Shown piece after piece: positions 26,325 to 36,243 of a stretch of 64,000 nucleotides of DNA. Under the pieces are notes generated by a model. The model was not told the origin of the DNA. It saw nothing but the letters and a program-made list of their open reading frames with translations, and searched no databases. This stretch comes from Gammaproteobacteria bacterium (lineage in GTDB: Bacteria; Pseudomonadota; Gammaproteobacteria; Pseudomonadales; Oceanobacteraceae): the NCBI GenBank assembly GCA_013373125.1, contig JABXIK010000075.1, forward strand, positions 11,845 to 75,844, read 5' to 3'. Within the stretch, counting starts at the first letter, position 1. Each line of letters starts with the position of its first letter. Position numbers and translations under genes: made by a program.

Positions 26325-27347
26325 TTAACGTTCACGCTCACGAAATTCTCCGGGTGTCATACCCAGCCAGCTTTTAAAACTACGATGAAATGATCTTGGT
26401 TCGCTAAAACCTAAGCGCGCGGCAATGTCTTGAATAGAAAGTTCGCTGCTAATGAGTAAATGTTTGGCTTGTTCTTGGCGAACGTCATCTAAAATATTTT
26501 GGTAGCTGGTGTCATGCTGTTGCAGGCGACGTTGCATGGTGCGTTCTGACATGCCGAGACGTTTGGCCACCATTTCTTTTCGAGGGATGCCTTCTACTAA
26601 TAATCCCTTAATCACATTTTTGGTTTGCATGGGTAATGGCTGTTTGTCGCTGATGTTGGCCATTAATATGTCGGCGTGATTTTCTAGGGTTTTTAGCAGT
26701 TGTTCGTCGGGTTGGCGCATGGGTAGGGCCAGTAGTTTTTGATCAATGATCAAAGAGCTGTGGTCGCAGTTAAATTCCATGGGGCACTGAAACATGCTTT
26801 GAAATTGCAACATGGCATTGTGATCCGGTTGCGGAAATTCAAAATAGATTTTGCGGGGATTGCCGTTGGGTTTGTCGGTAAGAAAGCGGGCAAAGTTAAT
26901 CCACGAGCCCAGTACGTTGGCGATCATATGTGGGCGCACCGTTGGGTCTGGGTAGTGGCAGTGCCAACGCATTTCGATGGCGCCATCGTCTTGTGAGAGA
27001 ACTTCTGTGTGTCCCATGTCGCCCACTAAGCGCTCATAGGTGGGGGTGATCTTGATGGCTTCTTTAAGGCTTTTGCAATTCATTACCATGTAGCCTAAAA
27101 CACTGTAGGAGCCTGCTTGCACGTAGCGCGAGCTTTTTAAACCAAAGCAGGGGTCTTGTGTGGCGCGGGCTAGATAAGCCAGAACACGCTGAAACTCTTC
27201 GCCTGTGATGCGCTTTACATCATTATTTAAGACTTCCAAGCTCACGTCGTTTGCGTTGAGCACGTGGGCAGGGTCTAGCCCATAGTCGGCAGCGGCTTTT
27301 AGATATTGCAATATGGCCGGTGATGAAGCATAACCTAGGTGATTCAT
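26325..27347 (-). CDS. AraC-family regulator (long N-terminal ligand domain; GliR/PA3027-like)
   Basis: C-terminal double HTH (VAKRLGMSERTMQRRL...LGFSEPRSFHRSFKSWLGMTPGEFR); divergent from the AGPS operon. Confidence 0.92.
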   Translation of the reverse strand: MNHLGYASSPAILQYLKAAADYGLDPAHVLNANDVSLEVLNNDVKRITGEEFQRVLAYLARATQDPCFGLKSSRYVQAGSYSVLGYMVMNCKSLKEAIKITPTYERLVGDMGHTEVLSQDDGAIEMRWHCHYPDPTVRPHMIANVLGSWINFARFLTDKPNGNPRKIYFEFPQPDHNAMLQFQSMFQCPMEFNCDHSSLIIDQKLLALPMRQPDEQLLKTLENHADILMANISDKQPLPMQTKNVIKGLLVEGIPRKEMVAKRLGMSERTMQRRLQQHDTSYQNILDDVRQEQAKHLLISSELSIQDIAARLGFSEPRSFHRSFKSWLGMTPGEFRERER

Positions 27348-27508
27348 GGCGAATAAAGTTCTCTTATGATTATTCTGACTTTATTTGTACGGACGATGGC
27401 ATTTTATGACAGTGTATCCAAATGAGCCAACGTTATGATGGCTGCCATAATAACGTCAGATAAAATACGCGTCTATTTCTTACAAAAATAAATCTTTAGG
27501 AGTGGGTT

Positions 27509-29113
27509 ATGCGCCGCTGGAATGGTTGGGGTGATGATGGTTTTGAAATGGCCACCCCAGAAAATGGTATTCGCTATTTAAATAGTAAAGTGGCGGCCGG
27601 TACTGTGTTGCCGGATGCTGATTTACAAGATGTGTGTGCGCAAGTGCCTGCCACCAGATTGCCTCAGCATCCGTTAATTAGCACTAAAGCCGAAGATCGT
27701 GTGCGTCATGCGCGTGGCCAAAGTTTGCCAGATTGGTTAGCAATGCGAAGCGGTGATTTTGGTGTATTCCCTGATGGTGTGAGCTTTCCGCAAAGCACTG
27801 AACAAGTGGAAGAGTTACTACAGTTTGCGTATTTGCATGATATCGAAGTCATTCCTTATGGTGGGGGGACCAGTGTGGCGGGGCATATTAATCCGCTGCA
27901 AAGTGAGAAACCTGTGTTGACCATCGACATGGGTCACATGAATACCTTGTTAGATTTAAATACCGATAGCCAAATCGCAACGTTTGGTGCAGGTGTGCCT
28001 GGCCCTCAAGTGGAAGCCCAGTTGCGTGCGAGGGGTTACACCTTGGGCCACTTCCCGCAATCGTGGGAGTTGTCTACGTTAGGTGGTTGGGTGGCGAGCC
28101 GTTCTAGTGGTCAGCAGTCTTTGCGTTATGGCCGCATCGAGCAAATGTTTGCTGGTGGCACCATGGTTACGCCAAAAGGACGATGGGATATTCCTACCAT
28201 TCCTGCATCATCTGCAGGGCCTGATGCGAGAGAAATGGTGTTAGGTAGTGAAGGCCGCATGGGCATCATTACCGAAGTGAAAGTACGTGTTACGCCTTTA
28301 GCTCAACAAGAAACGTTTTATGCTGTGTTCTTACCGAGCTTTGAAGCCGCAAAAAATGCAGTACGAAACATCGTACAAAACAAAATTCCGCTTTCTATGT
28401 TACGTGTGAGTAACGCGCTTGAAACAGAAACCCAGCTAAAATTAGCCGGACATGAAACGTTAATTGCATGGCTTGAACGTTACTTGTCATTGCGTGGCGT
28501 GGGAGAAGGAAAGTGCTTGTTAACCTTTGGTGTAACCGGTAACAAACAACAAAACAAAGTTTCTCTTAAGCAGGCGTTTAAAATATTTAAACAGTTTGGG
28601 GGCGTTAAAGGCCCGGCAATGATGGGCGAAAAGTGGGCGGAGAATCGCTTTAAATTCCCTTATTTGCGTGAAAACTTATGGCTTGAAGGCTATGCGGTGG
28701 ATACGTTTGAAACCGCAACCGACTGGCATCGCGTAACCGATTTAATGAACGCCATGGAAGACAGTGTGCGCACAGCGCTGAGTGAAGAGGGCATTGTGCC
28801 TCATGTTTATACTCACTTGTCGCACATGTACACCCAAGGTTGCAGCATCTACACAACTTATGTGTTTCCAAATGCGGACAGCTATGAAGCGACTCTTGAG
28901 CGTTGGAAAAAAATCAAACACGCTGCCAGTACCACAGTGGCAAACGGTCATGCCACCATTAGTCACCAACATGGTGTAGGTAAAGATCATGCGCCGTATA
29001 TGCCAGCTGAAAAAGGCGAACTGGGTATGCACAGTATTCAAGTGTTGGTCGATGGCTTTGACCCCAAACAATTACTCAATCCGGGCACGCTGTTAGAGCG
29101 TCACCCTAAGTAA
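27509..29113 (+). CDS. Alkylglycerone-phosphate (alkyl-DHAP) synthase-like FAD oxidoreductase
   Basis: PYGGGTSV, GHFPQSWELSTLGGWVASRSSG, HMYTQGCSIY and SHQHGVG parallel the eukaryotic AGPS motifs. Confidence 0.88.
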   Translation: MRRWNGWGDDGFEMATPENGIRYLNSKVAAGTVLPDADLQDVCAQVPATRLPQHPLISTKAEDRVRHARGQSLPDWLAMRSGDFGVFPDGVSFPQSTEQVEELLQFAYLHDIEVIPYGGGTSVAGHINPLQSEKPVLTIDMGHMNTLLDLNTDSQIATFGAGVPGPQVEAQLRARGYTLGHFPQSWELSTLGGWVASRSSGQQSLRYGRIEQMFAGGTMVTPKGRWDIPTIPASSAGPDAREMVLGSEGRMGIITEVKVRVTPLAQQETFYAVFLPSFEAAKNAVRNIVQNKIPLSMLRVSNALETETQLKLAGHETLIAWLERYLSLRGVGEGKCLLTFGVTGNKQQNKVSLKQAFKIFKQFGGVKGPAMMGEKWAENRFKFPYLRENLWLEGYAVDTFETATDWHRVTDLMNAMEDSVRTALSEEGIVPHVYTHLSHMYTQGCSIYTTYVFPNADSYEATLERWKKIKHAASTTVANGHATISHQHGVGKDHAPYMPAEKGELGMHSIQVLVDGFDPKQLLNPGTLLERHPK

Positions 29114-29132
29114 ATATTGGAATAGGAATATC

Positions 29133-30725
29133 ATGGATACATGGCAGTCACCTGAACGTCTACAAACGCTAGCAACCATTAAGCGTACAACGCAGTGGGA
29201 TATGTTAGTGATTGGCGGTGGTATTACGGGTGTGGGGATTGCGCGTGAAGCTGCGCGCCAAGGATTGTCCGTTTTACTGTTGGAGCAAAAAGATATTGCG
29301 TGGGGGACGTCCAGTCGTTCCTCAAAAATGGTCCATGGTGGCTTACGATATTTAGCTTCAGGCAATTTAAAGTTAACCAGCCACTCAGTGAAAGAACGCG
29401 AGCGCTTAATGGATGAAGCGCCGGGCTTGGTGGATTTAATGGCATACAGCTGGCCTCATTACAAAGGGCAGTTTCCTGGGCCTAAAGTATTTTCGATTTT
29501 ATTGGCTTTGTATGATCGCTTTGCTGGGCAAAAGTATCGTCACTTTATTGATAAGCAAGAAGCGCTGTATGAGTTACCCGGCTTAAGTGAAGACGGTTTA
29601 TTAGGCGCGACTCGTTTTGCCGATGCGGTGACGGATGATTCACGTTTGGTCATGCGTGTCTTAAACGAAGCGCATAATGATGGCGCCATCAGTTTGAATT
29701 ACTGCCAAGTAGATGAAATGCAGTATCAAAATGATCGCGTCAGTGGTGTTATTGCAACCGATCAAGTAACTGGTGAGCGTTATGAAATTTCAGCTAATGT
29801 CGTAGTGAGTGCCACAGGTGCTTGGGCAGATAAATTTCGTAAGCAGCTTGGGCAAGAAGGAAAGATTCGCCCATTACGTGGCAGCCATTTAATGATCCCG
29901 GCTTGGCGCTTGCCTTGTGCTCAATCTATTACCCTTAAGCATCCGGTAGATGGACGCAGTATGTTCATTTATCCATGGGAAGGATTAACTGTCATTGGCA
30001 CCACGGATTTGGATCATCCTGAGGTGGATAGTACAGAGCCAAGTATTCAGCCTGCCGAAGTGGATTATTTACTAAAAGCGGCAAATCACCTGTTTCCAAA
30101 ATCGAATTTAGAAAAGACCGATATCGTGGCAACGTTTGCCGGTGTACGCCCCATTGTATCGGGTGGCGCATTGAATCCTTCTTCAGAAAAACGTGATCAC
30201 AGCATTTGGGATGACAAAGGACTCATTACCGTCAGTGGCGGTAAATTGACCACGTTCCGTTTGATTGCATTGGATGTTTTAAAAGCGGCCAGTGTGTACT
30301 TCAAACAGCTGAACTATAAAGATTTAGGTCAACGTATTTTTAATGATGCAAAAGCATCGTCACAACAGTTCTCTTTACTTGAAACACAATGGCAACGTCG
30401 CTTATTAGGCTTTTATGGTCAGCAAATTGATGACGTGTGTGAGTGTGCGCAAGAAGAAGGTTGGGCTTTAGTGCCAGGCACCATGACGTATTGGGCGCAA
30501 GTGCGCTTTGCCGCACGTAGCGAGTTTGTTGTGAATCTAGATGATTTATTACTGCGTCGTACTCGCATTGGCTTGTGTGTGGGCGAAGGTGGTCGAGCGT
30601 TCGAAGAAAAAATAAAACATATTTGTCAGCAAGAGTTGCAATGGGATGACGCCCAATGGCAGCAGCAGTGGCAAAACTATTTGGCCGTTTGGCAGCGTTA
30701 TTATTCGTTGCCAGAAAGTGCATAG
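29133..30725 (+). CDS. Glycerol-3-phosphate dehydrogenase/oxidase family (GlpD2-like)
   Basis: IGGGITG, GTSSRSSKMVHGGLRYL, IGTTD, GVRP and GGKLTTFR motifs. Confidence 0.92.
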   Translation: MDTWQSPERLQTLATIKRTTQWDMLVIGGGITGVGIAREAARQGLSVLLLEQKDIAWGTSSRSSKMVHGGLRYLASGNLKLTSHSVKERERLMDEAPGLVDLMAYSWPHYKGQFPGPKVFSILLALYDRFAGQKYRHFIDKQEALYELPGLSEDGLLGATRFADAVTDDSRLVMRVLNEAHNDGAISLNYCQVDEMQYQNDRVSGVIATDQVTGERYEISANVVVSATGAWADKFRKQLGQEGKIRPLRGSHLMIPAWRLPCAQSITLKHPVDGRSMFIYPWEGLTVIGTTDLDHPEVDSTEPSIQPAEVDYLLKAANHLFPKSNLEKTDIVATFAGVRPIVSGGALNPSSEKRDHSIWDDKGLITVSGGKLTTFRLIALDVLKAASVYFKQLNYKDLGQRIFNDAKASSQQFSLLETQWQRRLLGFYGQQIDDVCECAQEEGWALVPGTMTYWAQVRFAARSEFVVNLDDLLLRRTRIGLCVGEGGRAFEEKIKHICQQELQWDDAQWQQQWQNYLAVWQRYYSLPESA

Positions 30726-30764
30726 TAAACAATAAAAACAAGAAAATAGATTTCAGGTTGATTC

Positions 30765-32324
30765 ATGCAGTCGCAATACATTCTCACCATTGATAATGGC
30801 ACGCAAAGCGTTCGTGCTTTGCTGTTCGACTTACAAGGTCAGTTAATGGCAAAAGGTAAGGTTGAAATAGAACCTTACTTTTCTAAGCAGCCCGGCTGGG
30901 CTGAGCAAGATCCTGAGTATTATTGGCAATGTGCAGGGGAAGCCTGCAAGGCCCTTTGGGCTGAGACAGATATTTCGCCTGAATCGGTAATCGGTGTGGG
31001 GCTGACTACACAACGGGGCACCATGATCAACTTGGATCAAGATGGTAAACCGTTAAGGCCAGCCATTATCTGGTTGGATCAACGTCAAGCTGAAATAGAA
31101 AAGCCTATTTCTGGTTTATGGGGCATTTTGTTTAAAGTTTTGGGCTTGAATCCTGTGATTCATGGATTTCAACGCAAGGCACAAGCTGCATGGATCGAGC
31201 AAAATCAACCGGATATCTGGCATAAAACCCATAAGTTTTTATTGTTAAGCGGCTACTTAACTTATCGCTTAACGGGTGAGTACAAAGATTCTGTGGGGTG
31301 CACGGTTGGGTATTTACCGTTCGATTATAAACATCACAAGTGGGCCGCAAAAAGTGATTGGAAGTGGCAAGTAGCCAACGTTGCAGATGACATGTTGCCA
31401 GAGCTGGTTAAACCCGGTGAACAGCTTGGGCGTTTAACCCAAGACGCAGCTGAGCATTTAGGTTTGCCTGTGGGCTTGCCTTTGATTGCATGTGCATCGG
31501 ATAAGGCGTGTGAAGTGATTGGCAGTGGAGCATTAGACCCACACATTGCCTGTTTAAGTTACGGCACCACGGCTACGATTAATACCACGACAAAAAAATA
31601 CGTGGAGCCTGTGCAGTTTATTCCACCTTATCCAGCGGCAATTCCCAATGCTTACAATACCGAGGTCATGATTTATCGTGGTTTTTGGATGGTGAGTTGG
31701 TTTAAAAAACAATTTGGTTTGCGTGAACAACAAATAGCCGACGATCGAGGTGTCGCCCCTGAAGTGTTGTTTGATGAATTGGTGAATTCGGTTCCGGCGG
31801 GTTCCATGGGGTTGATGTTGCAACCTTATTGGTCTCCGGGTACGCGCATTCCGGGGCCTGAAGCAAAAGGAGCGGTTATCGGGTTTGGTGACGTGCACAC
31901 GCGTGCGCACTTGTATCGCTCTATTTTGGAAGGTTTGGCTTATGGTTTGCGCGAAGGCAAAGAGCGTATAGAAAAGCGCAGTGGCACCAAGATTACAAAA
32001 TTGCGCATCAGTGGTGGCGGTAGTCAAAGTGATGCTGCCATGCAATTAACGGCCAATATTTTTAATTTGCCGGCAGAGCGCCCGAGTACTTACGAAACAT
32101 CAGGCTTGGGTGCAGCGATTAATGTGGCGGTCGGTTTGGGGCGTTATTCAAATTACGAACAAGCCATTGATCAGATGACATCAGTAGGACAGGTGTTTGA
32201 ACCGGATTTTCAAACCAGTCGTTTATATGATCAATTATATAAAAATGTGTATTTGAAAATGTATAAACGCTTACAACCCTTGTATCGGCAAATTAAAGAA
32301 ATCACGGGTTACCCAAAAGCATAA
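30765..32324 (+). CDS. FGGY-family carbohydrate kinase (glycerol-kinase-like)
   Basis: IDNGTQSVRA, PGWAEQDP, SYGTTAT and SGGGSQS motifs. Confidence 0.92.
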   Translation: MQSQYILTIDNGTQSVRALLFDLQGQLMAKGKVEIEPYFSKQPGWAEQDPEYYWQCAGEACKALWAETDISPESVIGVGLTTQRGTMINLDQDGKPLRPAIIWLDQRQAEIEKPISGLWGILFKVLGLNPVIHGFQRKAQAAWIEQNQPDIWHKTHKFLLLSGYLTYRLTGEYKDSVGCTVGYLPFDYKHHKWAAKSDWKWQVANVADDMLPELVKPGEQLGRLTQDAAEHLGLPVGLPLIACASDKACEVIGSGALDPHIACLSYGTTATINTTTKKYVEPVQFIPPYPAAIPNAYNTEVMIYRGFWMVSWFKKQFGLREQQIADDRGVAPEVLFDELVNSVPAGSMGLMLQPYWSPGTRIPGPEAKGAVIGFGDVHTRAHLYRSILEGLAYGLREGKERIEKRSGTKITKLRISGGGSQSDAAMQLTANIFNLPAERPSTYETSGLGAAINVAVGLGRYSNYEQAIDQMTSVGQVFEPDFQTSRLYDQLYKNVYLKMYKRLQPLYRQIKEITGYPKA

Positions 32325-32533
32325 AATAAAATTCTCCAAGGCGATGCAAATCGCCTTTTTTGATTCTTTTCTAATCAATTTTCTAATATTCATTTGTGCA
32401 CTTTTCACATTTTTGCCGATTGTTAAACACAATTTGGCGCATTTGGTGTATTCTTCGCCGCTTTTGAGCTTGGTCAAAATAAGCCATTGGGTTTTTCTTG
32501 ATCAAAAAAACAGCGAAGGAAACCGTGTTTGTG

Positions 32534-34285
32534 ATGGTTAAAAATAAAATAGCGAAATCGATTCAAGCTGGATTGTTGGCATCAGGTCTGCTGACAGCTG
32601 TGTCTTCCCATGGTGTTGAGTTCTTCATGGATGTAGAAGGCAGTTTCACTTCTCAATTATCCATTGGTTCCAGCTGGCGTGTAAGTGATCAAGATGAGCG
32701 CTTGTTAGCACCAGGTAACAATAATGATGGCAATGCGAACTTTGAAAAAGGCGATGCTTTTTCACAAATCTTTAAAGGCAGTCATGACCTGCATTTGCGT
32801 AGCGGTAATCACGGTGTATTTGTACGCGGTAAATATTGGCACGACTTCGCATTAGAAGAGGGTGAATTTGATCATGGTCATTCTGCTAATGGTTTTACAT
32901 CTGAAGAAAAATTAAACGATAAAGAGTTTAATGAGCTTTCAAAGTTTTCAGGCGCTGCGCTTTTAGACGCGTATGTGTACGGCATGTACGAAATCGGTTA
33001 CACACCCATTGATGTGCGTTTAGGTCGCCAAGTGGTGAGTTGGGGCGAAAGCACATTTATTTTAGGCGGTGTGAATTCCATTAACCCTGTGGATGTGAAT
33101 GCGTTTCGTCGCCCAGGTGCTGAGATTAAAGAAGGTTTGTTGCCGGTTAACATGGCGTACGTGAATATTGGTTTAACCGAATTTTTGTCTATGGAAGCCT
33201 TTTATCAATTGGAATTCCAAGAGACGGTAATTCCAGGTTGCGGCACTTACTTCGCGTTTAACGACTACGCCCCAGAGGGTTGTAATCAAGTTATTTTAAC
33301 CTCAGATGCTTTAGCTGGTTTGGGTGATGCTCAGCGTTCTGCAGGTGGTTATGTGATTATTCGTGATGCAAATGGTAACCGCTTGGCTAAGGATGAAGGC
33401 CAGTACGGTATTGCTTTTCGTTATATGAGCGAAGCACTAGGTGATACGGAATTTGGTTTTTATGCCATGAACATTCACAGCCGTTTACCTGTGGTTAATG
33501 GTATTAAATCTGCGACTTGGGGCGCAGCCGCGAGTCCTTCAGATGCAGATCAACTGACAGCCATTAACAATAATAAAGACGGTACTTTTTATTATGTAAC
33601 GTACCCTGAAGATATTCAGTTAGCGGGTTTAAGCTTTTCAACCAATGTAGGCTCCATGGCGGTGTCTGGTGAAATTAGTCATAAAAAAGATGTGCCACTA
33701 CAAATTAACGCCACCATGTTGTTAGGTGCAGGTTTAACGGGTTTGTCTACGTCAACTAAGTTGATGGCGGATGTGGCGGCAACGGCAAACGGTGCGGACT
33801 TTGAAGGCTATCGCTTGTTTGATGTGAGTCAGGCACAATTCACCATGTTGCAATTTTTTGATCGATTCTTAGGTGCAAGCCGCTATACCTTAATTGCAGA
33901 AGCCGGTTACACCTTTATTCATGACTTTGATGAAAGTGATGATGCGATTAAATTCAGTCGTGCGGGTGTATTTGATGGCGAAGAGGGTGGTTTTGTGACA
34001 GAACGCTCTTGGGGCTATCGCGCTCGTTTAGTAGGCGAATATAATAATGCATTTGCAGGTGTGAACTTAAAACCAACCTTGGCGTTTTCTCACGATGTAG
34101 AAGGCTTTGCGCCACAGCCAGGTGGTGCATTTAAAGAAGGTGAACAATCTGTTGGTTTCACTTTGCAAGCTGACTACGCGTCTATGTACAGTGCCAGTGT
34201 GTCTTATACCGAATACATGGGTGGTGATTACAGCCTAACGTCTGATCGTGATTTTGTTTCTGTCAGTATGAGCGTACAGTTCTAA
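32534..34285 (+). CDS. DUF1302-family outer-membrane beta-barrel protein
   Basis: Signal peptide; NDGNANF, GRQVVSWGES, NPVDVNAFRRPGAEIKE and DRDFVSVSMSVQF (terminal Phe). Confidence 0.88.
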   Translation: MVKNKIAKSIQAGLLASGLLTAVSSHGVEFFMDVEGSFTSQLSIGSSWRVSDQDERLLAPGNNNDGNANFEKGDAFSQIFKGSHDLHLRSGNHGVFVRGKYWHDFALEEGEFDHGHSANGFTSEEKLNDKEFNELSKFSGAALLDAYVYGMYEIGYTPIDVRLGRQVVSWGESTFILGGVNSINPVDVNAFRRPGAEIKEGLLPVNMAYVNIGLTEFLSMEAFYQLEFQETVIPGCGTYFAFNDYAPEGCNQVILTSDALAGLGDAQRSAGGYVIIRDANGNRLAKDEGQYGIAFRYMSEALGDTEFGFYAMNIHSRLPVVNGIKSATWGAAASPSDADQLTAINNNKDGTFYYVTYPEDIQLAGLSFSTNVGSMAVSGEISHKKDVPLQINATMLLGAGLTGLSTSTKLMADVAATANGADFEGYRLFDVSQAQFTMLQFFDRFLGASRYTLIAEAGYTFIHDFDESDDAIKFSRAGVFDGEEGGFVTERSWGYRARLVGEYNNAFAGVNLKPTLAFSHDVEGFAPQPGGAFKEGEQSVGFTLQADYASMYSASVSYTEYMGGDYSLTSDRDFVSVSMSVQF

Positions 34286-34342: not shown

Positions 34343-35563
34343 TTAAGCGGTTTGCATAACGTCATTTTGTTTTTGAATTTGGTAGAGCCAAATAAAAGAG
34401 ATGATACCTAAAGCCAGTATTGTAAAGCTTAACCAACTTGGGGCAGTGACAACCCAGATCGAGTTGGCGAGTAAGCATGCATATTTAATCAGCTCCAATA
34501 CTAAACTGTGTTTATGATTCTCTTGCATACGACCTAAGCTGTATAAACCTAACGCCAACGTTAAGCCCACAGAAAAATGTTGGTACATGGCCAGCTCTTT
34601 CACGTTATGCATGAGCAAAAATACACCTAATGTCACGACGGCTAATTGTACGATGGCGTACCATTTGGCAGATAGGCTCAGTGGTGTGTCATATTTTTCT
34701 ACGGCCCCATTGCTCTTGATAAGCGGGTATTTGGCTTCCACATCCGCTGGACGATAGCCTGTACGGCGAAACCAAAGCGTGAATTTATCTTTCCAATTAT
34801 TGGTGCGCCAAGCATCTTTGCAAAGGGATGTCACAAAGTGCAGATTCCCCCAGATTGGGTTCCAACTGGCCAGTTGAGTGCTGATGCCAAAAATGACTTT
34901 TTCGTTAACCAATTCCGGTTGGAACGTTCCAAAGATTCGATCCCATAAAATGAAAACGCCGCCATAGTTTTTGTCTACATACACTTTATTTTTAGCATGA
35001 TGAACACGGTGATTACTTGGGGTTACAAAAATAAACTCGTACCAGTTTGGCATTTTATCAATGGCTTGAGTGTGTACCCAAAACTGATAAAGCAAGTTCA
35101 ACGAACCAACGGCCACTAGAACCACAGGCGGGAAGCCCATAAAGGCCAGTGGTATGTAGAATACCCATCCAATGACATTAGGAACGCTGGTTTGGCGTAG
35201 TGCGGTTGTGAGGTTATATTCTTCGCTGGAGTGGTGGATCACATGACTGGCCCAAGAAATATTCATGGTATGGCCAATGCGATGCACCCAGTAATAACTG
35301 AAATCATACAGCACAAATGCGGCTAACCAAGTCCATACATTGCTTTGCCATTCGAACAGGGCAAAGTCTTCATAAAAATACACATAAAATGAAAACGGCA
35401 CGGCTGCATAAAGAATTTGCGTGATGCGACTCATAATGCCCATGGCTAGGGAGTTGATCGCATCATTGAGGCGATACACATTTTGCTTTTTATATGTGGT
35501 CCAAGCGAGCTCAAGCACTATGAGCACAAAGAACACAGGAATGGCCATTAAAATATAATTCAT
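34343..35563 (-). CDS. Alkylglycerol monooxygenase (AGMO/TMEM195)-like di-iron membrane hydroxylase
   Basis: YYWVHRIGH, HVIHHSSEEYNLTTALRQ, QFWVHT, TPSNHRVHH, DKNYGG and WDRIFGTF, plus the AGMO-type C-terminal TM extension (KWYAIVQ...SLG...LELIKY); start moved to 35563. Confidence 0.82.
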   Translation of the reverse strand: MNYILMAIPVFFVLIVLELAWTTYKKQNVYRLNDAINSLAMGIMSRITQILYAAVPFSFYVYFYEDFALFEWQSNVWTWLAAFVLYDFSYYWVHRIGHTMNISWASHVIHHSSEEYNLTTALRQTSVPNVIGWVFYIPLAFMGFPPVVLVAVGSLNLLYQFWVHTQAIDKMPNWYEFIFVTPSNHRVHHAKNKVYVDKNYGGVFILWDRIFGTFQPELVNEKVIFGISTQLASWNPIWGNLHFVTSLCKDAWRTNNWKDKFTLWFRRTGYRPADVEAKYPLIKSNGAVEKYDTPLSLSAKWYAIVQLAVVTLGVFLLMHNVKELAMYQHFSVGLTLALGLYSLGRMQENHKHSLVLELIKYACLLANSIWVVTAPSWLSFTILALGIISFIWLYQIQKQNDVMQTA

Positions 35564-35673
35564 CGTTATTCTCGTTATTATTTTGATGAGTTTATCTTTG
35601 TAGATTGGACTGAAACCCACAATGACCCTAGGGGTCACATAGTGATCCTAGGTGCCATTTATGGGGTTTAAGG

Positions 35674-36243
35674 TCATATTGGCTTGGTATTGAGGTGGCG
35701 ACTGCTTAAAGTGATCAGAACGTAAAAGCTGCTTAAACACAGGTGGAAGACCCCAATTCGCAGGCTTTCATCTTGAATGATGGCGCCCCAGACAAGGGTG
35801 CTAAGTAACAAGATAACTCCGGCTATCCCCATGTAGAGTGCTTGCATATTCTGACGAACCTTAAAGATCAAAACCAAGCTGAGTATCACGATATAGGCAT
35901 CGCTGATGATGCCGATTGGGGTTAAGTAGTTAATTACAGTGAAGATGAGCGCAAGGCCCACCAAACCATAGGGCAGAGCTCTAGGCGTTAGAGTTTGCCA
36001 GAGTAGAGCGATAAGGAAGCTGGCCATGGCGAAGTGTTTGCCCGCAAAGCTCAGTTCTTTGTGCCACTCTAGAGTATTGGCAAGTTCGAGATAACGTAGT
36101 AAACCCATAACTGCTGCACCAAAGGTGATGCCTAAAGCGACATAGATTAGTGGGTGACGTTTTTGTTGGGCGCCTTGTTTTGCTGAAAATAATAAGGCGC
36201 TTAATAGCAAGAGTTCAGATAGGCCGGCAATGTACATAATCAT
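35674..36243 (-). CDS. Hypothetical polytopic membrane protein (about 6 TM)
   Basis: Almost entirely hydrophobic 189-aa ORF. Confidence 0.8.
   Translation of the reverse strand: MIMYIAGLSELLLLSALLFSAKQGAQQKRHPLIYVALGITFGAAVMGLLRYLELANTLEWHKELSFAGKHFAMASFLIALLWQTLTPRALPYGLVGLALIFTVINYLTPIGIISDAYIVILSLVLIFKVRQNMQALYMGIAGVILLLSTLVWGAIIQDESLRIGVFHLCLSSFYVLITLSSRHLNTKPI

Follow-up and report, generated by a model that had tools for sequence, protein, structure and literature searches.

An AGMO-like membrane protein of a gammaproteobacterium carries threonine in place of the glutamate linked to pterin affinity in the animal enzyme

A stretch of 64,000 nucleotides from a Gammaproteobacteria bacterium (assembly GCA_013373125.1, contig JABXIK010000075.1, positions 11,845 to 75,844), referred to as the window in this study, encodes a protein of 406 amino acids, P0001, which is almost certainly a member of the alkylglycerol monooxygenase (AGMO)/TMEM195 family of membrane di-iron oxygenases, as judged from its sequence. 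P0001 retains the nine histidine residues and six further residues that are essential in human AGMO, together with the C-terminal membrane domain of the animal enzyme, whereas the glutamate residue of animal AGMO associated with tetrahydrobiopterin affinity is replaced by threonine (Thr99). The best explanation of these features as a whole, put forward tentatively and by analogy with the animal enzyme, is that P0001 may be an AGMO-family oxygenase that cleaves ether lipids without the animal-type contact between glutamate and pterin.

The gene, for which the initial annotation gave no strand, is encoded on the minus strand by an intact open reading frame (ORF) with an ATG start codon. The longest ORF containing the gene starts with a GTG codon at position 35638; however, the ATG is the likely start of P0001, because homologs of 405–406 amino acids align from its residue 1 with 100% coverage. 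The Pfam domain FA_hydroxylase was identified in P0001 (8.5e-30) and covers the catalytic core (Table 1).

Named eukaryotic AGMOs were reached in two steps. The search with P0001 returned, among its best 150 matches, the protein P0200 of the slime mold Ceratiomyxa, and the search with P0200 returned proteins named AGMO at NCBI or UniRef from Bombina, Rhineura, Narcine, Callorhinchus, Mytilus, Rhopilema, Tachypleus, and others. P0001 and the Bombina AGMO share 37% identity over 371 amino acids (BLASTP, E 2e-77), in an alignment that starts at the first helix and ends at residue 365, and identity to animal AGMOs amounts to 36–37% over approximately 370 residues. The histidine residues described as essential in human AGMO (H132, 136, 145, 148, 149, 201, 221, 224, and 225; PMC7911779) correspond to His94, 98, 107, 110, 111, 164, 185, 188, and 189 of P0001, all of them located in invariant columns of a 13-sequence alignment. 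In the same alignment, the further essential residues Q162, D233, N235, Y236, W243, and D244 of the human enzyme (PMC7911779) are represented by Gln124, Asp197, Asn199, Tyr200, Trp207, and Asp208. The fatty-acid-hydroxylase histidine boxes proposed in the initial annotation are present. The segment HHSSEEYNLTTALRQ, to which that annotation had also drawn attention, occupies residues 110–124, the same columns in which animal AGMOs carry HHSSEDYNL[TS]TALRQ.

Overall, P0001 and animal AGMO (EC 1.14.16.5) have in common the N-terminal helices, the FA-hydroxylase core with eight plus one histidine residues, the HHSSE[ED]YNL..ALRQ block, and the C-terminal four-helix domain. P0001 differs in being approximately 35 residues shorter at the N-terminus and in being a bacterial inner-membrane protein, whereas the animal enzyme resides in the endoplasmic reticulum.

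The AGMO-type C-terminal extension was likewise recovered as previously proposed. In a profile–profile comparison, residues 285–406 matched the C-terminus of animal AGMOs (hhalign probability 97.6%, E 4e-12, 87 columns), and the AlphaFold2 (AF2) model, which is of middling confidence (predicted local distance difference test, pLDDT, 72.6), placed four helices in this region (residues 297–318, 326–347, 353–371, and 376–405). The Pfam family AGMP_C (PF24858) did not match P0001 at E ≤ 1; it matched the homologs P0091 (24.6 bits) and P0243 (20.4 bits), both under the cut-off of 28.3 bits. Regarding structures, a PDB sequence search with P0001 revealed no related solved structure, Foldseek with the AF2 model returned nothing at E ≤ 0.001, and VIA-align wide gave no informative match of the model to the catalytic core; residues 293–406 matched generic four-helix bundles only, with Z values up to 11.2, which is the common range for helical bundles.

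Most homologs carry the NCBI name ‘sterol desaturase family protein’, and the top NCBIfam match of P0001 is OlsE, which would suit a generic sterol desaturase or another enzyme of the FA-hydroxylase superfamily. However, the OlsE match reached only 62 bits, the cut-off being 475, and a vertebrate AGMO query scored 239 bits with P0001 versus 54 and 52 bits with the other two FA hydroxylases of the genome (277 and 373 amino acids), which themselves matched P0001 with only 63 and 42 bits. Furthermore, the C-terminal domain present in P0001 is AGMO-specific. A decaying gene is opposed by the intact frame, the complete set of catalytic residues, and orthologs of 56–91% identity across the genus. 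A non-AGMO or degenerate identity of P0001 is considered very improbable, and the initial proposal of a full-length AGMO homolog rather than a generic sterol desaturase is upheld by the identity to animal AGMO, the C-terminal domain, and the trees.

Phylogenetic trees were calculated with FastTree (193 rows) and as an IQ-TREE quick tree (61 rows, of which 59 were AGMO-like), both with a thin outgroup made up of the genome’s own two other FA hydroxylases; references for ERG3, ERG25, and FA2H were left out, and so was PRUB680. The 59 AGMO-like rows were split from the two other FA hydroxylases with a support of 99 (SH-like approximate likelihood ratio test, SH-aLRT), in agreement with FastTree. 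A phylogeny against AGMO, ERG3, and ERG25 had been suggested before; the grouping with AGMO was confirmed, and ERG3 and ERG25 were not among the rows. The eukaryotic AGMOs formed one clade (SH-aLRT 99) nested among bacterial clades, again in both analyses. P0001 was placed by both methods in a small marine gammaproteobacterial clade, well apart from the eukaryotic AGMO clade.

The most conspicuous difference to the animal enzyme is residue 99. In the 13-sequence alignment, P0001 reads HRIGH-T-MN, whereas the animal proteins read HRMAH-E-VN (animal consensus H-E-[ILV]-N), the glutamate being Glu137 of human AGMO. This residue was described as the only acidic residue whose mutation raises the Michaelis constant (Km) for tetrahydrobiopterin, with an 18-fold effect of E137A, and glutamate or aspartate at this position was reported in no other enzyme with the FA-hydroxylase motif (PMC3304488). 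The position is occupied by threonine, valine, or methionine in all 60 nearest database homologs (54% identity or more), by threonine or valine in 14 of 14 orthologs taken from the genus, and by glutamate in all of the next 61 homologs (51% identity or less). Among the columns conserved in the glutamate-bearing sister group and in eukaryotes, only four are changed in the clade of P0001, residue 99 being one of them. These alignments indicate that the clade of P0001 is stably devoid of the animal pterin-contact glutamate. Across 150 cluster representatives of the family, glutamate was the commonest residue (85), and arginine, threonine, glutamine, and others also occurred; the AGMO-like protein P0365 of Mytilus californianus carries lysine (H-K-V-N). 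Hence, Glu137 is typical of the AGMO family, but not universal, even in animals. The initial annotation, which left the cofactor as another pterin or a different electron donor, missed Thr99 at this position, which bears directly on the cofactor. Pterin docking in the animal manner is disfavored for P0001 by its sequence, and a pterin of any kind as its electron donor appears somewhat doubtful. However, the loss of glutamate still leaves room for a pterin, because human AGMO with the E137A exchange stays active with a raised Km and because the Mytilus protein has lysine.

The capacity for pterin synthesis was evaluated in the genome of the window, which is 99.99% complete. No match to an aromatic amino acid hydroxylase (PF00351, phhA) was found in this genome. 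It does encode an adjoining folE–folX pair (FolX, 186.8 bits, cut-off 152; FolE, 364 bits, cut-off 202), a pteridine-reductase-like short-chain dehydrogenase/reductase (SDR) adjoining folK–folB (283.3 bits, cut-off 288; 29% identical to FolM of E. coli), and a pterin-4a-carbinolamine dehydratase (PCD, phhB) adjoining a class I fumarase gene (171 bits, cut-off 133). Given this gene content, reduced pterin would plausibly be available in the host. A search for phhAB, folX, and folM had been proposed with the initial annotation; apart from the missing phhA, counterparts of these genes are present, and PCD proved not to be specific for genomes with AGMO-like genes. PCD was identified in 34 of the 41 relatives analyzed, an aromatic amino acid hydroxylase in only seven of them, and no PCD gene adjoined the AGMO-like gene in any of the 80 loci fetched. 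PCD without the hydroxylase (‘orphan’ PCD) is the rule in the order. Orphan PCD was rejected as evidence for a pterin-dependent AGMO, being near-universal in the order irrespective of AGMO-like genes; it gives no specific support, because it is equally present in relatives without an AGMO-like gene or hydroxylase.

A second AGMO-family paralog of 546 amino acids is encoded on contig C98 of the same genome. This paralog keeps the pterin-contact glutamate, lies closer than P0001 to the eukaryotic clade in the tree, and scored 252 bits against vertebrate AGMO versus 239 bits for P0001. Several genomes of the genus encode the same form, with 530–550 amino acids. An SDR gene is located two genes downstream of it.

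The exhaustive search with P0001 returned 12,614 matches at E ≤ 0.001 and 1,709 at E ≤ 1e-30. The nearest homologs originate from Bermanella (82%), followed by Paraglaciecola, Bowmanella, Thalassotalea, and many Pseudomonas species; further sources are Woeseiaceae, Halieaceae, Leptospira, Bacteroidota, and Gemmatimonadota. Many close homologs at JGI and one NCBI record are named ‘alkylglycerol monooxygenase’. Accordingly, the previously noted presence of an AGMO homolog in a bacterium is real, but represents no rarity. AGMO-like matches at E ≤ 1e-40 were found in 31 of the 41 genomes of the relatives search (the genome of the window included), and matches at E ≤ 1e-60 in only 6 of 200 further genomes sampled evenly across the class. 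The AGMO-like family is large in bacteria, yet patchy. It is already annotated in databases, and P0001 alone establishes no bacterial ether-lipid degradation route.

Some hints regarding function are provided by domain fusions within the family. Fusions to YhhN, the lysoplasmalogenase family, were found in P0140 (134 bits), P0213, and P0257, which belong to the same family and the same large bacterial clade as P0001 (FastTree). Others involve alpha/beta-hydrolase domains (P0162, 838 amino acids) and a phospholipase/carboxylesterase-like domain (P0243, 647 amino acids); P0143 (772 amino acids) combines the AGMO-like core with a beta-lactamase-like and a Golvesin_C domain. In addition, YhhN adjoins the AGMO-like gene in 3 of 80 loci, all of them betaproteobacterial. 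These YhhN and esterase fusions and pairs would fit glycerolipid or ether-lipid chemistry at the level of the family. In contrast, the P0001 gene is neither fused to nor adjoining YhhN, and the YhhN gene of its genome is located on another contig. This single YhhN gene (C57:40200-40907, minus strand) lies approximately 5 kb from a short, distantly related FA_hydroxylase gene (C57:45523-46356, plus strand; 277 amino acids).

In the explanation favored here, P0001 would be a di-iron monooxygenase integral to the membrane, in which a catalytic core of approximately 280 residues precedes the four-helix membrane domain. In analogy to animal AGMO, it would most probably hydroxylate the carbon adjoining the ether oxygen in a 1-O-alkyl glycerolipid, and the hemiacetal product would split into a fatty aldehyde and the glycerol moiety. 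Electrons would presumably not arrive via the animal-type glutamate–pterin contact; the donor could be a bacterial tetrahydropterin docked differently, provided by the pterin genes described above, or a non-pterin compound.

The gene region next to P0001 comprises a cluster of genes for a GliR-like AraC regulator, an AGPS-like FAD enzyme, a GlpD-like enzyme, an FGGY kinase, and a DUF1302 outer-membrane protein. The stop codon of the DUF1302 gene lies 57 bp from that of the AGMO-like gene, in convergent orientation, and a simple scan for intrinsic terminators between them was negative. The FAD enzyme appears to be clearly AGPS-like, since it matched Dictyostelium AGPS (2uuu) at 5.3e-73 with 250 bits and D-lactate dehydrogenase with only 81 bits. 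Homologs of the enzymes making (AGPS) and breaking (AGMO) the ether bond in animals are therefore encoded less than 6 kb apart. The cluster lies next to the AGMO-like gene in loci of orthologs of at least 63% identity (L019, L021, L025, L029, and L042, as well as L020 with an insertion of approximately 5 kb). This AGPS-like linkage is shallow, being confined to part of one genus. The cluster resembles the regulon PA3026-PA3024 of GliR (PA3027) in P. aeruginosa (Kotecka et al. 2021, PMC8151288), which also comprises regulator, AGPS-like, GlpD-like, and FGGY kinase genes, the gene order and the divergent arrangement being identical. However, no AGMO-like gene was reported for that regulon (PMC8151288), and DUF1302 is found in the window where P. 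aeruginosa has the YegS-type lipid kinase PA3023.

Directly upstream of the AGMO-like gene and co-directional with it, an ORF for a multi-pass membrane protein (P0122) was identified. Counterparts of this ORF were found in L019, L025, L027, L028, and L030, but in none of L020, L021, L026, and L029; in L027 and L028, the counterpart is separated from the AGMO-like gene by only 2–3 bp. P0122 is a possible operon partner of the AGMO-like gene in part of the genus only. It showed no resemblance to small ORFs adjoining AGMO-like genes in other genera. The idea of a diverged YhhN was rejected, as P0122 had no Pfam match even at E ≤ 1. Between this ORF and the AGMO-like start codon, two boxes were detected, TGACCCTAGGGGTCA being a perfect palindrome and TGATCCTAGGTGCCA a related box. 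They probably represent a recent, local operator or repeat, because a similar box occurs in only one close relative (L029) and none in L019, L020, L021, L025, or L026. An operator shared by the AGMO-like and AGPS-like promoters was discarded, since the box was seen only upstream of the AGMO-like gene in the window and in L029. Membership of the P0001 gene in a GliR-type AGPS-like operon was also rejected: the orientation is convergent, the linkage is shallow, and the boxes are absent from the AGPS-like promoter.

Table 1. Features of the AGMO-like gene, its surroundings in the window, and related genes elsewhere in the genome (contigs C36, C57, C93, and C98).
Feature	Position	Strand	Basis or remark
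AGMO/TMEM195-family membrane di-iron oxygenase gene (predicted; P0001, 406 aa)	34343-35563	-	Translation, Pfam, vertebrate AGMO match, trees; stop codon 34343-34345
FA_hydroxylase catalytic core, residues 79-213	34925-35329	-	Pfam; holds 9 His and 6 further essential residues
HHSSEEYNLTTALRQ segment, residues 110-124	35192-35236	-	Translation and alignment with animal AGMOs
C-terminal four-helix membrane extension, residues 285-406	34346-34711	-	hhalign, AF2 helices, hydropathy peaks
Thr99 codon, position of human AGMO Glu137 (tetrahydrobiopterin-affinity residue)	35267-35269	-	Alignment
Two palindromic boxes 20 bp apart, TGACCCTAGGGGTCA and TGATCCTAGGTGCCA	35623-35657	.	Between P0122 ORF and AGMO-like start codon
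Multi-pass membrane ORF (P0122, 189 aa), directly upstream	35674-36243	-	Translation; no Pfam match
GliR-like AraC regulator	26325-27347	-	NF050186, 422.6 bits, under 570 cut-off
AGPS-like FAD enzyme	27509-29113	+	Pfam, NCBIfam; Dictyostelium AGPS match
GlpD-like enzyme	29133-30725	+	Pfam, NCBIfam
FGGY kinase	30765-32324	+	Pfam, NCBIfam
DUF1302 outer-membrane protein	32498-34285	+	Pfam, NCBIfam
Whole neighboring cluster, regulator to DUF1302 (candidate functional link to AGMO-like gene)	26325-34285	mixed	
Second AGMO-family paralog (546 aa)	C98:24399-26039 (locus L033:8400-10040)	-	C-terminal Polyketide_cyc2/SRPBCC lipid-binding domain
folE-folX	C57:99210-100227		
SDR with folK-folB	C93:31698-33319		
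PCD with fumarase	C36:6592-6990		

Several observations weigh against ether-lipid cleavage by P0001 without the animal-type pterin contact. In the papers searched, no ether cleavage by a bacterial AGMO-like enzyme was found, and reviews of AGMO list animals only (PMC3617469). According to two papers (PMC7911779, PMC6667630, citing de Rond et al. 2017), PRUB680 of Pseudoalteromonas rubra is the only characterized bacterial AGMO-like relative; like P0001, it originates from a marine gammaproteobacterium, but it cyclizes prodigiosin, which is no ether lipid. The same direction is indicated by the gene neighborhood: the AGPS-like cluster is not adjacent in orthologs of 57–60% identity (L027, L028, and L030) or at 79 of the 80 loci that belong to other genera, it is not co-transcribed with the AGMO-like gene because of the convergent orientation, and the AGPS-like gene also occurs in relatives without a P0001 ortholog. 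When 1,258 neighboring ORFs from the 80 loci were clustered, no partner gene kept beyond lineage synteny was found. As to the cofactor, the relatives with PCD include G026, G030, G031, G032, and G038, where AGMO-like matches (E ≤ 1e-40) and hydroxylase matches are both missing, and the residual activity of E137A human AGMO (PMC3304488) and the lysine of the Mytilus protein count here as well. An ether lipid as substrate of P0001, suggested by analogy, is accordingly proposed with reserve, a different lipid substrate being about equally likely.

It is quite possible, in particular, that P0001 represents an AGMO-fold enzyme with a hydrophobic non-ether substrate, for example an endogenous membrane lipid or a hydrocarbon-derived metabolite, whose alkyl chain it hydroxylates, desaturates, or cyclizes. 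In addition to the prodigiosin precedent, this would be in line with the patchy distribution in the class, with the change of an otherwise conserved residue next to the iron ligands in the clade of P0001, and with the occurrence of the gene alone beside unrelated housekeeping genes in most lineages (neighbors sampled elsewhere include hemB, guanylate kinase, RidA, DUF3014, and Ada/AlkA genes); the diverged, SRPBCC-fused paralog in the same genome also suggests substrate diversification. However, for at least some family members, the fusions with YhhN and esterases suggest a chemistry of glycerolipids, ethers, or vinyl ethers; the clade-specific changes at conserved columns are limited to four, all other catalytic residues of the animal enzyme and its C-terminal domain being retained; and the AGPS-like operon adjoins the AGMO-like gene in the lineage of P0001. 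The idea preferred in the initial annotation, namely a functional equivalent of animal AGMO in which ether cleavage is driven by tetrahydromonapterin and the pterin is recycled by PCD, is regarded as unlikely. The folE–folX pair, the pteridine-reductase-like SDR, and PCD are available for it without an aromatic amino acid hydroxylase to use them, and every other essential AGMO residue is kept; however, the pterin-affinity glutamate is missing from the whole clade, PCD shows no association with AGMO-like genes in either genomes or loci, and the glutamate-bearing paralog on contig C98 is the better pterin-dependent candidate in the genome.

Returning to ether-lipid cleavage by P0001, a more far-reaching scenario is quite unlikely, but would have considerable consequences. 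The Bermanella-type clade, with threonine or valine for glutamate, may have switched from pterin to another donor and, together with the GliR-controlled operon of AGPS-like, GlpD-like, and FGGY kinase genes and DUF1302, may form a two-route island for marine alkylglycerol ether lipids, in which an oxidative route (AGMO-like) would operate beside a kinase, dehydrogenase, and reverse-AGPS route. The latter succession of steps would, if true, amount to an oxygen-independent release of the alkyl chain of alkylglycerol. Marine ether lipids are abundant, and no bacterial degradation route for them was described in the papers searched. If confirmed, such an island would provide the first bacterial system for ether-lipid catabolism, as well as a tractable model of the animal enzyme, which has never been purified. 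An expressible bacterial member could yield the first structure and mechanism of the family. Furthermore, the natural variants with threonine or valine in place of glutamate and the glutamate-bearing paralogs, which are found here in one genome, would offer a ready comparison of electron supply in this class of di-iron enzymes.

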